Shown here one piece after another: positions 14,699-22,900 of a stretch of 29,688 bases of DNA (its first letter is position 1; each line of letters starts with the position of its first letter). This DNA comes from Catajapyx aquilonaris. Lineage: Eukaryota. Position numbers and translations under genes: made by a program. Location: positions 62,001 to 91,688 of the forward strand of contig KZ538254.1 of NCBI GenBank assembly GCA_000934665.2, in the 5' to 3' direction. The notes beneath the pieces are model-generated. The model had not been told where the DNA came from, searched no databases, and saw only the letters and a program-made list of their open reading frames with translations.

Positions 14699-16615
<1,917 letters not shown>

Positions 16616-16809
16616 GGCCACGCCCCACGGCCAAAAAAAGCTGGAAAATTATAGTTCTTCCAATTGGTGCCTAGATCTCTTATCAATTTTAATCAAAATA
16701 CTCTATTTTTCTACATGGTTGTTGGCTACTTTTTAAAATGATCATGATGTATACACACCAATGTATGCTCAGATCATGTACGTGGATATTTTTGTTACGG
16801 GTGAAGTGC

Positions 16810-16815
16810 AATAAA
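16810..16815 (+). terminator. Poly(A) signal AATAAA for ACAT2
   Basis: First AATAAA about 195 nt after the ACAT2 stop, with T/GT-rich sequence downstream; a second AATAAA at 16860. Confidence 0.6.
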
Positions 16816-16878
16816 CACGTTGAATTTTTATGATAGGTTTATGCTGATTCCAAGTACATAATAAATTAGAAGGGTTGA

Positions 16879-19234
16879 CTACTGTTGCTCCATCCGCTGC
16901 TCCATCTTCTCTCGAATCTGGTCCTGAATGGCTGCTACGGTTTCGTCGTGCCGCCTCTGCACCAGCCTTGCCTTCCTGCTGGACTTGCGACCCTCGTTTG
17001 TCTGTTGCCGGCCCCTGCCTCTCTCCATCTGGGCCTCCAGCACACGCCTCATGTCCACCTGGCAAACATGGCACATTTAATACGCTTTGCAGGATTCCTA
17101 CTGCTCAGTGGCGGCAGCAGCTCTCCTGATGCCCCCAGGCACCCCAGGGTAGAAGCCAAAGGGATTGCGCCCCTTGTCAAAGGTTGGGAGCCGCTCGGTC
17201 AGTGGCAACCCCACCAGGGTGTCCACGCTTGGGATGCACAACCGGCCGTAGCTGCGAACCGTGTGCCCCCACATTGTCTCTTCAGCCCTGCAAGTGAAGT
17301 ACGACCCCCACTGGGAGGACACAATCAGATCCCTGTCGGGATGGGTCTGGCCCTGGGGAGACTCTGCCCCTGCCTCTTCCAGCACAGCCACGCTGTCGCA
17401 GGACGAATAGCGACCGGGAGCCATCACATCTTGCCCTATGTGGTCACCAAAGTAAAGGCACTTTGGTGGTCCTTCCTGACCTGAAGCACGACCCAACACC
17501 TTGCACAGGTCAGACCAATTGCCCTGGAGGAAAAAGTCGGGCGTTGACAATCTGAACGCTCCGTATAAAGGACCAGCTTCCCTACCTGCGTGTAGTCTCC
17601 TCCTCCCTCCATGTCATCCACCCCAACCACAGTGTCCGTAGCTGCCCCACTCTCCACCTTGTAAAAAGGCCTGTCCCCAGTAAAGAAACCAGGCTTCCTG
17701 GCAAAGAAGACGACCACGTCAAACAGGCTTCTCCAGTCTGGTCCCAGGGCAAACTTGGCAGTGTGACTAGCAAAGTCCACCTCCGACCCAGTTATCATGA
17801 ACGTCACCTTTTCCTTCCTAACTTTCCTGAGCCACTGAACCATCTCGGCCCTGCATTCGTAGTAATATTTTTCCGGATTGGCCTTGATGGACTCGAAGAA
17901 CCCACCACTCCCAGAGGAGAATCTGTCTGGCTTGAACTGGTCCAGCAGGCCCTGGAGGACGTCTGGCCAGAAGTTGTACTTCTCCAGAGGGCCACCGTTC
18001 TTGTAATCCAGTGCGTCCACAATGCGCATGGACGCCAGAGCAGAAGGCATGTCGAAGTAGTCGGAAAAGCACCTCATTTTGGTGGCGAGGCTGCCTCCAA
18101 ACCCATCCATGGGACGCTCCACAAACTCCTCCGCCACGTCCCACCTGCGGTCCCTGTAGGCGGCCTCCACCTCCACCTGCGTCATGACCCTGGTTCCGTG
18201 GCTGGCCATCTGCACCCGTCCCTCTGGAGATATCTGCACCAGGTTCCCCCTGGCCATGTCCAGCACCAGCCCCTTCCGCAAGAAGTCCACCTGCTCGTCA
18301 ACAGGCCGCAGCAAGGACTGGTCGTACCCTTTCCTGTCCACCAGGAACCTGGCCAGGTGTCCGTACTCCATCCGGACGAGGCCTCCGATCCTGTATCGCG
18401 CCAGGGTGTTGTCCAGGTCGAACCCGATGCAGTCGTAGTCTCCCAGGGCGAAGGTCGGGTTGTTGCTGGTGCTGGCCATCCTTGCAGCTGTGTTGCGGAC
18501 GAGTGCTGACCAACAATAAGCGGTGAGCTGCAGTGTGGATCTGGGCAACATCCACGCCCTTTCCCTGGCTGCCCCTTGCCCTCTCCCCTACGCAACAGGT
18601 CAAACAGGGGGTTATCAGGTCAGGCGATCGGAAAGGAAGTGACAAGAAGTTACATAACCAACGGACGGAGAGAAAAACAACATGCTTCAAATGAGGCGCC
18701 ATCTTGGGTCCATCAGCTGGGCGAGGCCGGTAGCCATGTTGGGTCCAAGTGGCAGGGGGTGCCAGACGAAGCGTGTCAGATACGGTATGCTGACTGTACG
18801 AAGGCCATTTGACTTAGCTTTAATTACTTCACACCCAAAGGACAGGCTGCTGCCGCCGCTGCCATTAAAGAGTACCTGCGCTTTGGCATTACCTGGTTTG
18901 GAACGTGTATGAGTCGTATGGCCCTGGCCTGCACAAAGAAGGTCGAGTACTGGTGGACGTTCCCAAGGCCATCTGTCATCACCGCATCGGACAGTATGAT
19001 GTTCATGAACCTGTGTACGGAGGCCAAATATATGAGCACCGCATTGGGGGCAGCAAGAGGAGGAGAATAACAATTATAGTGGCTGGCGTACGGGTCTGCA
19101 GACTGGACGTATCCCCTGACAGCCCAGTCGTTCCTGAGGTCCACGGTGATCCTGTACCTCTCCAGACCGTGCACCAGTCCGGCCAGGGTGTTGTACAGGA
19201 ACCAGCGCTCCCTCTTGGTCGTCTTCACCTCCAT
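16879..19234 (-). CDS. LSM10: U7 snRNA-associated Sm-like protein LSm10, 3 exons, ~146 aa
   Basis: Exons 19234-19092, 19010-18893 and 17058-16879 (441 nt in frame). RER..YNTL..L...L....ITVDLRND, D.FMNI.L and FFVQARAIRLIHVP match the LSm10 Sm fold. The phase-0 donor CAG|GTAATG joins the phase-0 acceptor TTTGCCAG|GTGGACATG, giving HVPNQ-VDMRRVLEAQM, similar to the HIPDD-VNITSTIEQQL recalled from human LSm10. Exons 1-2 are high confidence; exon 3 assignment is moderate. Confidence 0.85.
17098..18479 (-). CDS. NT5DC1: 5'-nucleotidase domain-containing protein 1 (cN-II-like HAD phosphatase), 2 exons, ~439 aa (463 aa if started at upstream ATG 18551)
   Basis: Exons 18479-17586 and 17523-17098 (TAG); 62-nt GT-AG intron. 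HAD motif I in DYDCIGFDLDNTL, plus FMITGS, ARKPGFF, QGNW and motif IV YFGDHIGQD, all typical of the NT5DC family. Confidence 0.9.
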
Positions 19235-19935
19235 CAGACGCTGCCAGACAAGACAGAAACCAAGGAACCGTCACGGAATCCTGTCCGATCCCACAGGAAG
19301 CGCCATTTTGGATTCCCACGCAGTTCGATGCTCCCTTGTCGTCTTGGGGGTGCGTTCAGTATCTCCATTCGTGAGGTCACTGCACTGGTCATCGCAATAG
19401 GCGGAATTTTGTAGGCGCATGCAACGGACGAGCACGTACTACGTTACATGTCCGACAATGTGGTGTACTCACAGCTCCGTAATTAAAACAATGAGCGCAC
19501 GGCATAAAATTAATTCACATTGTTCAATTTCTGAACGCTGCCTTGCCACTGTAGCCAGCTGCAAATAATACGGTATCCAAGGATGTCGAGCATACCGTAT
19601 TTTTTCCAGCCAGTAACATGATTGTAGGTAATTATTAGAAAATGCGTGATTTTTTTCCCCCTTTTGTGCCAGCTGTATTATTATCTCATCTGGTCATGAT
19701 TATGTACAACAAGCACACAGATACAAATACACAGGAAATGGGGCCAAAATTTTTTGGGGAGGTTTTGCTGCTGGTACTTATAATTACTCACGCTAGTATT
19801 CTCGCCATTCAATTACGCAAAAAAAAAAACAGAGTTTATGTTTTAATATAAAGTTGAGGGGAGGGGAGGATGGGTAAGGGCAATAAATGGGAGTAGGGAG
19901 CATTAATTGATTGATTGATTAATGAATTAGTAGGT

Positions 19936-22900
19936 TCAGAGGCTGTCGTCACTCTGGAGCCCCTGCAGCATGGGGAACTCCAGGGACTCTTGAGACGACG
20001 ACTCTTGCGCAGGAAGGGAGCTTCCTTCACTCGCAAATTCATCTCCTGTGGGAAATGTAGCAGAAAGAGTGGAGATTAATAATTATTCAGAAAGGCACGT
20101 CTTGGAGCAAGCTGGGGCGACGACTCACCTGCTTCTGCAGCATTGCTAGGGGCAGTGGGAGTAGGTGTGGTGGAAGCGGCAGCTGCGGCCATCTCCTCCT
20201 GCTGCCTGTTGATTGCTGGGTCGATGGCCTCCTTGATGTGGGAGTTGGCTCCTTTAGGGTCGAGGTCCATGGCGCAGCTGAAGTTGAGGAGGGCCAGGTG
20301 GGTGTTCCCAAGCTTGTTGTGCACTTTGCCCATCAGGAAGTAGACCAGGCTCTCCTTCGGGACCATCTCCTTCAGCTCCTCCAGCTCCTTCAGGGCGTCC
20401 AGATGCCTGTCCACCGCAAAGTATATGGAGGCCCGGTGGAACTTGCAGAGGGGGTTGCGAGGGTGGTTGGCAATGGCTGCGTCCAGGGTCTGCAGGGCTC
20501 GTTCAGTCTTCTGCAGGGCGTGCTGGACCACCCCCATGTGGCACATCAGCACTGACGACTGGGGGTTGATCTGGAGGGCACGACGGAAGTACACCTCTGC
20601 CATCTGGTACTTCTCCTGCTTGTAGTATATCATACCCACACCGTACCTGCAACGTCACCATTAATATTAGCAATCTGACAATCTGCCAGCGTGCCACCAG
20701 TACTGACCATGCATTGTAGTGCCTGGAGTCAAGCCTGACTGCATTCCTAAAACAGCTCATGGCCTTGTCCAGCTCCTCGTTGGTGACGTATTCGTGCCCC
20801 AGCAAGGTGTAGGCATAGGCAAAGTTGGGTTGCACCTGCACTGCCCTTTGGAAGAAGCGGATGGCAGCGTCGTGCTCCTTCTGCAAGGAGAAACAGTTCC
20901 CTGCTGCACACCACGCTGCTGCGGAGCCCCTGTCTAGTGCGAGGAGGTCGTGGGCCAGGGCAGAGAGGGCCACTTCCTTCTGGAGGTGCCACAGGGCAGT
21001 GGAATAGTACTCTATGAGGTCAGTGCGGTGATGCTCCTTCTCTCTGACACGTGAAAAGTGTCTGCAGGCATTCTCGTACTCCCCCATCTCCAGGTAAGCC
21101 TTTCCAAGCTGGCTTAGCACCCATGCTGTGCGACCCTGCTTGCCAGACACGCTCTTCAGGCATTCCACGGCACGTTTAAGCTCAAACTGGGACAAATGCA
21201 GCTTAGCAGCACCAAGTTCACGCAGGAGCTGCATCAGGCCCTCTGAAATGGTTTGACAACAACGTCATTAGCTATGTTCACGGCAAGCACTGCCATTCAA
21301 GCACTGTACCTGCAGACTGCTTCTGCATGCTGAGGGCATGCTTGCAGAGGGTGGGCTGCATCGACTTGTTAAAGATGAGCTGCGCAGCCACTTTAGATTC
21401 AGGTGCTAAGACGGAAGGGTTTCCAGTGGTGGGGTTGTTGTTGTTTCCCCCGCCTCCACCACCAACCACGTTGGCATTGTTGTTGGTGGTGGGTGTGGTC
21501 ATGACATTAGTTTCCGCCTTGTTCCTCTCATTGAGCTGCTGGAAGGAGCGAGTGACTCTGGATTTGGACTTGCGGGATGAAGGGGACTTGGGAATGCTGC
21601 TCAGCTTGGACCTCCCCCCTCCAGGGCTCTTGTTGTTCTCTTTCACCGAGTTGTTGGTGAAGAGTCGGGAGGAGCGTCGCACGTTCAGGGTGGGCTGCAG
21701 GGGGGGAGGAGGAGGGGGCGCCTGCTGCTCCTGCCCTTGCCCTTGGCTCTGCTGTGACGTGGGTGGAGGAGGCGCAGAGTTGCTTGTATTGCACGATTGG
21801 CTGAACACAGACTTGCTCTGAAAATGTGACGCCAGCGAGTAAGGTCTTCTCCGTGGTGAAGGGATGGAAATACTCACTCGTTTGGTGACAGCGGTGGAGT
21901 CAGCATTGAGTGCATGCCAGGGGAACACTGGTGGCGTCAAAAACGCGAATGTGCTTGACATCGACTCCCCACCGGATGAGTCCAGCGGTAGCACCCCAAA
22001 GCTGCGAAGTTGCGAGTAGTTAAATTTGCATAGTACAAACACAACATAAGATGGGGGATGTGTACACAATGTAAACACAACGTACCTGGGAGTGAGTGGG
22101 CTGATTGGCAGGGGAGCATTGAATACGCTGACGTACTTGACTGGTTTTGTGGAAGAGGAGGTTCGTCCTTGGCAGCGCTGGGCGGCAGGCGGGAGTGGCG
22201 GAGGGGGAGGAGGGTGGTTGGGCGTCCTCATCCCCACAGGGGTGTCCTCCGACTTGATCCCACTTCCTATCAAGGGTAGGGGTATGCTGACGGCACACAC
22301 GTTGTGCACAGGGGTGCTGTAGATCATGGGGTTCATGCCTCCGTCCCCGGGGATCATGCTGCTGATGGGGGTGCTGACAGAGGTGGGAGGCATGGGGGTC
22401 TGGGAGGGAGGGGGAGGGACAGGGGTGGGCAGCAGGTTGTCCAGCCCTTGAGAGTTCACCAGGTTCACCACCGTATTGCTCCCGTGGCACATTGAGAATG
22501 AGTCCAGGTGCGACACCTGCAGCCCCACCAAGAGAGAAATTCAGGGTCGGTCATCACACTGAGAATTCCAATGCAATCCTTTGTGGAATTACCTGAAAGG
22601 TGCGCAGGGGGTCTGGCTTCTCCCCTAGGTTGCAAAGGGCCTCAAAGGCAGACCAGAGGAAGGGATTGAGCTTGAGGGCACGTCTGTAAGCCTCTGCAGC
22701 CTTGGAAACCTTTTCCGACTGGACAAAGATGCGGGCCAGCAACTGCAAGGCAAAGCAGGACGAGTCTCCAAAAGCGGACACCACTTCATCCAGTGAGGGA
22801 GGACCAATGCCGGATGACATGGACGTGGGTGTGACGGGAGTTTCTGGAGTCATCATTCCGTCCCCACCGCCATCTCCAGCCCCAGATGACCCCAATCCTC

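Follow-up and report, generated by a model that had tools for sequence, protein, structure and literature searches.

A same-strand nest of NT5DC1 within the last intron of LSM10 in Catajapyx aquilonaris

Nested genes and the LSM10 locus

About 10% of Drosophila genes take part in nested structures, and 71.27% of the nested genes lie on the strand opposite to their host; among those on the same strand 72.53% are single-exon, and where a same-strand nested gene contains introns its host is less often lethal (26.0% vs 42.33%), according to the available part of one survey of such pairs (Lee and Chang, 2013; PMC3814207). Here we describe a same-strand nest in Catajapyx aquilonaris, located in a stretch of 29,688 nucleotides (nt) (assembly GCA_000934665.2, contig KZ538254.1, positions 62,001 to 91,688 of the forward strand; hereafter the window, whose own numbering is used throughout). 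In this stretch the last intron of LSM10, predicted to encode the U7-associated protein LSm10, encloses a complete two-exon coding sequence of NT5DC1 (439 amino acids, aa) on the same, minus strand. A preliminary description, made from the sequence alone, had stated that nested genes are more often antisense, and the Drosophila proportion agrees with it.

The locus resembles the same-strand Drosophila pairs, as the available part of that survey presents them, in that a protein-coding gene lies wholly within one intron of its host, and in that the nested gene is intron-poor, with one intron of 62 nt here and none in the insect-like loci treated below (PMC3814207). It departs from the definition given there, under which the untranslated regions (UTRs) of a pair do not overlap: here the stop codon of the nested gene lies 39 nt from a coding exon of the host, and RNA enters that exon. 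It also departs from the lethality trend of Drosophila hosts in the same portion of the survey, the host here being a core small nuclear ribonucleoprotein (snRNP) protein. Unlike many nested genes, which are young, the LSM10/NT5DC1 pair is old and common to several insect orders.

Parts of this layout recur in other known systems. LSm10 itself is a U7-snRNP-specific Sm protein that sits in a ring with LSm11, and the human LSM10 and NT5DC1 genes are on different chromosomes. The secreted and membrane forms of immunoglobulin mu, and likewise calcitonin and CGRP, arise by splicing versus intronic polyadenylation, and the INK4a and ARF transcripts of CDKN2A have downstream exons common to different first exons; like these cases, the present locus has a region that is spliced out or kept as a terminal part, and a downstream exon that would serve two products. 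Unlike them, it encodes two unrelated proteins, each with a complete open reading frame (ORF), no regulated switch is seen, and the exon in question codes for one product and would be untranslated for the other. The dicistronic Drosophila genes stoned and Adh/Adhr also combine two tandem same-strand ORFs with RNA continuity; in contrast to them, the host ORF here resumes beyond the nested gene, and a dicistronic mRNA is not seen. LSM10/NT5DC1 is a newly described pair of a known kind, the same-strand nested gene, whose less usual features are its age, its core U7 snRNP host, and a nested 3' end in near-contact or overlap with a host coding exon. A literature search, with supplements outside its scope, found no paper on the pair or its nesting.

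Structure and expression of the two genes

LSM10 has three coding exons on the minus strand (19234-19090, 19008-18893 and 17058-16879), which, read from the sequence and joined by script, give a spliced product of 146 aa. Exon 1 (19090..19234) opens with the start codon ATG at 19234, aligns with residues 3-48 of human LSm10 and ends in phase 2. It is followed by an intron of 81 nt (19009..19089; complementary DNA (cDNA) joint 19008->19090, CT..AC ends, depth 42.1) and by exon 2 (18893..19008), which forms the second half of the Sm fold, matches human residues 45-86, has joints on both sides, and ends at a phase-0 donor, CAG/GTAATG, at 18893. The host intron (intron 2) then extends for 1834 nt (17059..18892), with its acceptor AG at 17060-17059 and a cDNA joint across it, to exon 3 (16879..17058), which encodes a 59-aa C-terminal tail and the stop TAG (16881-16879) and is supported by the junction, a tail profile and an alignment. 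Every coordinate of the preliminary description, including the exon-2 donor, the start of exon 3, the stops and the 1834-nt intron, was recovered when the sequence was reread and the exons were joined by script.

The RNA evidence comes from the single public run found to contain the stretch (X1, kind not recorded), the contigs of which were compared with positions 15000-21000. All six contig records are at least 99% alike to the window, with no differing letters, and all eight joints correspond to canonical introns, of 66, 64 and 63 nt in a plus-strand thiolase gene and of 61, 83, 81, 62 and 1834 nt on the minus strand. Because the contigs lack all eight of these introns, X1 is cDNA of this organism. 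The junction from 18893 to 17058, predicted in the preliminary description, is present and exact: it is reported as 17056->18891 (cut +2), skips 1834 nt with CT..AC ends, and has a contig depth of 42.1 (side 24 plus both 6). Contig record 4 (3099 nt) contains LSM10 exons 1 and 2, followed by 26 nt of exon 3. Seven of the eight introns seen in RNA over this region measure 61-83 nt and the 1834-nt LSM10 intron is the outlier, its length being due wholly to the NT5DC1 gene inside it.

The product of exons 1 and 2 matches the Pfam family LSM (PF01423; 8.6e-9, better than the curated cut-off), with the Sm1 and Sm2 motifs of the Sm fold. Among solved structures its top match is human LSm10 (6v4x chain C; 3e-5, over both halves of the fold), followed by LSm2 (0.2) and SmE (0.78). 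Identity to human LSm10 is low although this is the best structural match, and the window protein is longer (146 aa versus 123 aa); the human match stops at residue 86 of 123, and a further C-terminal part was therefore expected. A HMMER search run in full against 1.84 billion representatives yielded 47 matches at E<=1e-3, and those that were looked up carry the LSm10 name, the best of them coming from ants, a chalcid wasp, a lacewing, a weevil and a damselfly. One of the 47 (P0018) was rejected as an unrelated repeat protein. A word-based homologue search with exons 1-2, a method too weak for a short, divergent protein, found no match. By family membership the window protein is assigned to LSm10, the U7 small nuclear RNA-associated Sm-like protein, with a predicted role in histone pre-mRNA cleavage.

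The exon-3 peptide has no match in Pfam or among the solved structures of the PDB, so that the invertebrate-type basic tail of the window protein has no structural counterpart there, in contrast to its Sm part. It does align with the basic C-terminal tails of many invertebrate LSm10 proteins (MAFFT, 45 homologues under 200 aa; P0018 and a fused wasp model, P0016, both longer than 200 aa, were excluded). A profile built from 31 LSm10 tails of at least 30 aa, excluding the window sequence and the 14 of the 45 homologues with tails under 30 aa, scores this peptide at 20.7 bits, a value equalled by none of 1000 shuffles (top shuffle 10.9). When the profile was run against 656 six-frame ORF peptides from the whole window, the exon-3 ORF (1.5e-5) was the sole hit at E<0.1, the next reaching 0.15. 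Alignment and profile together bear out the homology to arthropod LSm10 C-termini on which the preliminary description had staked exon 3. With tail homology and the RNA junction as two independent lines, exon 3 is the genuine C-terminal end of LSm10.

With the donor at 18893 left unused, the LSM10 frame stays open for 22 codons, to a TAA at 18826-18824, giving a 109-aa form. An ATTAAA hexamer (18824-18819) overlaps this stop, and the element as a whole (18819..18826, minus strand) could, as a candidate poly(A) signal, mark the putative end of a short tail-less LSm10. That LSM10 as such ends here, like several hymenopteran models of 89-115 aa, with the exon at 17058 being accidental or foreign, is extremely improbable. 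Copidosoma RefSeq models of 89 and 90 aa do stop just past the Sm fold, and the hexamer does overlap the read-through stop, but the junction contig has a depth of 42.1 versus 3.6 for the read-through part, the exon-3 tail is homologous to LSm10 tails whereas the read-through tail scores -2.2 against the same profile, and loci resembling those of ants have an unannotated tail exon past NT5DC1 (39.0 bits).

Within the host intron, exon 1 of NT5DC1 (17586..18479) spans 298 codons from an ATG at 18479, is covered in part by cDNA contigs, and matches Pfam 5_nucleotid (PF05761) at 2.8e-38; exon 2 (17098..17523), which matches the same family at 1.8e-4 and is present in contig record 2, ends with the stop TAG at 17100-17098. 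The intron between them (17524..17585, 62 nt) passes a frame check and corresponds to a cDNA joint (17522->17585, cut +1, CT..AC, depth 13.8). Record 2 (783 nt, depth 13.8) spans 17033-17522 before crossing this intron, and NT5DC1 is therefore expressed and spliced. The same record continues without a break from the last exon of NT5DC1 through its stop and the 39-nt gap that separates the stop (17098) from the start of LSM10 exon 3 (17058), and on for 25 nt into that exon (17033). Thus, the host mRNA joins 18893 to 17058 across NT5DC1, the NT5DC1 RNA loses its 62-nt intron, and RNA is continuous into exon 3. Record 1 begins at 17062, and the records overlap over 17033-17062 (30 nt); overlaps of this length fit a k=31 assembly graph in which a spliced and an unspliced path enter one shared exon.

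The NT5DC1 product aligns over its full length with its homologues, and their C-terminal ends coincide. Relatives at E<=1e-5 number 269; of the top 120, all that bear a family name are labelled NT5DC1 or 5' nucleotidase A, and these come from insects and decapods and are 42-51% identical. Judged by the names of its matches, the nested gene is NT5DC1, not NT5C2 or NT5DC2/3. Motif I of the HAD superfamily (D-x-D-x-T) is present near the N-terminal end as D-L-D-N-T and is invariant in the NT5DC1 alignment (A2), and the protein is predicted to belong to the cytosolic 5'-nucleotidase II family of that superfamily. The 413 nt that separate the NT5DC1 ATG from the donor of LSM10 exon 2 (18480..18892, minus strand) presumably hold the promoter and 5'UTR of NT5DC1. 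This spacer carries nine ATGs, including one in the NT5DC1 frame at 18551; the frame is open upstream as far as 18587, and a start at 18551 would add 24 residues (leaving a spacer of 341 nt). Many NT5DC1 homologues have 40-80 additional N-terminal residues, rich in basic and hydrophobic ones, and a longer, possibly organelle-targeted isoform may occur here too. At the gathering score, Rfam gave no matches across the window.

The same layout in other arthropods

The preliminary description had pointed to synteny in related genomes, and comparison with other arthropods, through consecutive locus tags, fused wasp models and metagenome loci, bears the arrangement out. In the wasp Microctonus aethiopoides, one annotated model (P0016, 566 aa) contains the Sm part of LSm10, then NT5DC1, then an LSm10-type tail, in the one-strand order of the window, and its cluster mate from a second assembly (P0287, 631 aa) has the same order. 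These fused models score 2.2e-8 for Pfam LSM, 6.4e-57 for 5_nucleotid, and 19.4 bits for residues 501-537 against the tail profile. P0287 passes from LSm10 exon 2 into a long NT5DC1 N-terminal end without a stop, and the third member of the cluster (P0288) is NT5DC1 only, with its own C-terminal end. Fused models were met in Microctonus only, through the LSm10 search; when the best 120 of the 269 NT5DC1 relatives were examined for LSm10 parts in other species, this possibility was rejected, with an Sm-like part in none of the 120 and the top tail-like match at E=1. In the ant Ooceraea biroi (LSm10-like DMN91_011358, NT5DC1 DMN91_011359) and in the cockroach Diploptera punctata (LSm10 L9F63_013442, NT5DC1 L9F63_013441) the locus tags of the two genes are consecutive, and neither LSm10 model has the conserved tail, that of the ant being 148 aa long with an end of unrelated sequence and that of the cockroach 92 aa. 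Adjacency in Anabrus simplex was considered and set aside, both genes being on one 107-megabase record with accessions 102 apart, which does not show it.

Metagenome contigs were scanned with the NT5DC1 alignment, which yielded 38 loci, and their flanks were searched in six frames with the LSm10 and tail profiles. LSm10 Sm exons occur upstream of NT5DC1 in 10 of the 38: six whose NT5DC1 is 67-71% identical to that of Periplaneta (L001-L005, L013), three at 89% to an attine ant (L009-L011) and one at 50% to a thrips (L012). A tail exon follows NT5DC1 in five of the 38, namely L008 (71.5% to Chironomus), L009-L011 and L012, so that the ant-like loci L009-L011 and L012 are complete nests. All of the Sm and tail matches lie on the NT5DC1 strand, none on the opposite one. 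In splice-aware models, the LSm10 proteins of L009, L010 and L012 measure 148, 148 and 137 aa, with host introns of 2076, 2080 and 1927 nt in the same position as in the window (phase 0, two residues past the conserved H-x-P of the Sm fold) and with 376-419 nt between exon 2 and the first ATG of NT5DC1. In L001-L012, NT5DC1 is an uninterrupted single ORF or match. Two loci (L006, L007) have flanks too short for exon 2, and the remaining loci of the 38 are fragments or distant paralogues.

Another set of loci (L016-L020, L024) consists of GC-rich contigs (0.49-0.55) with intron-containing NT5DC1 relatives, 42-47% identical to the window gene and about as near to it as to any insect. Their available flanks, of up to 6.8 kilobases (kb), hold no LSm10 exon, and in these organisms the nest is either absent or much larger.

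The LSM10/NT5DC1 nest is real, old and common to several insect lineages. The NT5DC1 of the window groups with three decapods outside the sampled insects (support 89/92, midpoint root, composition flagged as deviant), and from this grouping the nest may predate the insects, although this is not secure.

Transcript starts and ends, and what the nest means

We favor, at a probability of roughly 60%, a reading in which LSM10 is a three-exon gene with an expressed same-strand NT5DC1 in its last intron, NT5DC1 having its own promoter and sharing the terminal exon of its host. Transcription of NT5DC1 would begin in the spacer of about 400 nt past LSM10 exon 2. The resulting transcripts would bypass the LSM10 3' splice site, since no donor is left to pair with it once their own intron has been removed, and would take the tail exon as 3'UTR together with the LSM10 poly(A) site. 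Because the tail exon would be shared, one 3' splice site would be used by the host and read through by transcripts of the nested gene. Short introns are presumably recognized across the intron, and the 62-nt NT5DC1 intron could then be removed independently of the 1834-nt host intron. NT5DC1 probably came into the intron as an intron-poor copy, an origin that fits its uninterrupted frame in each of the 12 insect-like loci (L001-L012) in which it is observed complete, and the long linkage of the two genes needs no functional tie, because any break between them cuts LSM10.

Where NT5DC1 transcription starts is the first point on which another explanation bears. The two genes could form a single transcription unit, in which NT5DC1 mRNA would consist of LSM10-promoter transcripts that retain intron 2 and are dicistronic for the 109-aa LSm10 ORF and NT5DC1, and in which splicing versus retention of intron 2 would split the output between LSm10 and NT5DC1. 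The depth of X1 at the start of the intron (about 3.6 in bin 18618-18818) is near the 3.8 of the NT5DC1 5' contig; record 4 shows that RNA contigs can cross gene borders at this locus, and Microctonus P0287 is open from LSm10 exon 2 into the NT5DC1 N-terminal end. However, contig depths cannot rank transcripts, and continuity is not seen, cover being absent over 18216-18416 and nearly absent to 18617. The nine ATGs and the LSm10 ORF that precede the NT5DC1 start would hamper translation, and a spacer of similar length (341-419 nt) persists in four loci, as a promoter would lead one to expect. In Drosophila the NT5DC1 orthologue is CG2277, according to the available part of one report (PMC7813868), and in the available part of another it is one of 14 genes that cycle daily in all tissues, which suggests control of its own (PMC7846174). 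We consider a single unit unlikely. No X1 contig connects LSM10 exon 2 to the NT5DC1 start, a result that contigs cannot turn into proof of absence.

The second point is where NT5DC1 transcripts end. An ATTAAA hexamer (17076..17081, minus strand) lies downstream of the NT5DC1 stop and ahead of the acceptor of LSM10 exon 3, in a gap where 0.019 would be expected by chance, and it could be a candidate poly(A) signal for NT5DC1 that overlaps the LSM10 3' splice-site region. Cleavage and polyadenylation at this hexamer (17081-17076), in direct competition with host splicing, would give the nested gene a 3' end separate from that of its host, a possible course of events that we regard as tentative. 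In addition to the placement of the hexamer inside the 39-nt gap, with a CA and GT-rich sequence after it, this explanation draws on the ant-like loci, in which 233 nt separate the NT5DC1 stop from the tail exon and an AATAAA lies 45 nt past the stop and 190 nt ahead of the tail exon. Against it, the unspliced cDNA path reaches at least 25 nt into exon 3; the two ATTAAA copies of the 1834-nt intron (17081-17076 and 18824-18819) are about the number expected by chance; and the corresponding gaps of L012 (119 nt) and L008 (about 56 nt) lack both AATAAA and ATTAAA, one being present past the tail stop. Downstream of the LSM10 stop in the window there are CATAAA variants only (16843-16838 and 16832-16827), within a presumed LSM10 3'UTR (16790..16878, minus strand) the lower bound of which is a guess; contig record 1 spans this region unbroken (16334-17062).

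LSM10 exon 3 probably doubles as the 3'UTR of NT5DC1 transcripts. The preliminary description had proposed that this 3'UTR may run through the last LSM10 coding exon, and the proposal fits a contig that is unbroken to 17033, although unspliced pre-mRNA could explain that contig as well.

Several observations weigh against a separately transcribed NT5DC1 with a shared last exon, or against the breadth and age of the nest. Unspliced LSM10 pre-mRNA would yield the same k-mers as a path from NT5DC1 into exon 3, and the RNA consists of contigs of one run, which give no starts, ends, strand or abundances. X1 cover is absent over 18216-18416 and almost so over 18417-18617, at the NT5DC1 start, which is silent on expression; given this gap in cover, a promoter belonging to NT5DC1 is a presumed one. 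Given the ATTAAA of the window and the AATAAA of the ant-like loci, NT5DC1 may, in at least some species, terminate upstream of the tail exon. LSm10 signal is missing from L020 (4.1 kb upstream, 6.8 kb downstream), from L019 (0.65 kb upstream, 3.5 kb downstream) and from L024 and L014, the cockroach- and termite-like loci have no tail exon at E<5 within up to 4.2 kb downstream, and the support of 89/92 for the decapod grouping is not strong.

The four splice sites of LSM10 intron 2 and of the NT5DC1 intron are all in phase 0, and both possible mis-joinings would therefore be in frame. Neither chimera (LSM10 exon 2 to NT5DC1 exon 2, or NT5DC1 exon 1 to LSM10 exon 3) is found among the eight X1 joints, with the caveat that contigs drop rare forms.

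The genes on both sides lie close to the nest. Just upstream of LSM10, on the minus strand, is a TPR/ANAPC3 (CDC27-like) gene (window 19090-20644; Pfam), and record 4 links the final exons of this gene (introns: 61 and 83 nt) to LSM10 exon 1 without interruption, crossing some 700 nt between the two genes. An ATTAAA occurs at 19847-19842. Either the UTRs of the two genes overlap or transcription reads through. On the other side lies a plus-strand thiolase gene (window 15280-17062; Pfam Thiolase_N and Thiolase_C; introns of 66, 64 and 63 nt), convergent with LSM10, and the presumed LSM10 3'UTR overlaps the thiolase 3' end. Plus-strand AATAAA hexamers at 16810 and 16860, on the thiolase side, together with the contig over 16334-17062, indicate an antisense overlap between the 3' ends of the two genes that perhaps reaches as far as the LSM10 stop. 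The window contains one N, at position 1606, which is distant from the nest.

For annotation, this work provides a verified LSm10 gene model for the genome and explains the truncated and fused LSm10 models in public insect annotation. The faulty ones (P0001, P0003, P0188, P0016 and P0287) include models from attine ants (115 aa, partial), Ooceraea (148 aa) and Diploptera (92 aa), which stop at, or read through, the exon-2 donor, and the two from Microctonus, which fuse NT5DC1. The shortness of the ant models most likely reflects truncated annotation, because the ant-like contigs hold an unannotated tail exon past NT5DC1. Work on the insect U7 snRNP that relies on such models misses the conserved basic tail.

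For gene organization, the pair is an unusually old same-strand nest. Its host is reportedly essential in Drosophila, going by the title alone of a 2009 paper by Godfrey et al., and this counters the trend in the available part of the Drosophila survey (PMC3814207). The pair therefore lends itself well, as a natural system, to the study of splicing by a host over a same-strand gene that is itself active, and the 39-nt gap makes shared versus competing 3' ends directly testable. That the LSm10 and NT5DC1 products may be coupled or traded off against each other, as the preliminary description proposed, is an inference. A further proposal, which is quite doubtful, is that the two genes make up one 3' processing module of ancient origin, present throughout the insects and possibly in pancrustaceans at large. 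In such a module the last coding exon of LSM10 would be the 3'UTR of NT5DC1, and use or bypass of the 3' splice site, or cleavage at a hexamer located on it, would set the ratio of full-length LSm10 to NT5DC1 and to tail-less LSm10. If true, the capacity for U7-dependent histone mRNA processing would be tied to a nucleotide-catabolic gene whose orthologue cycles daily in Drosophila.

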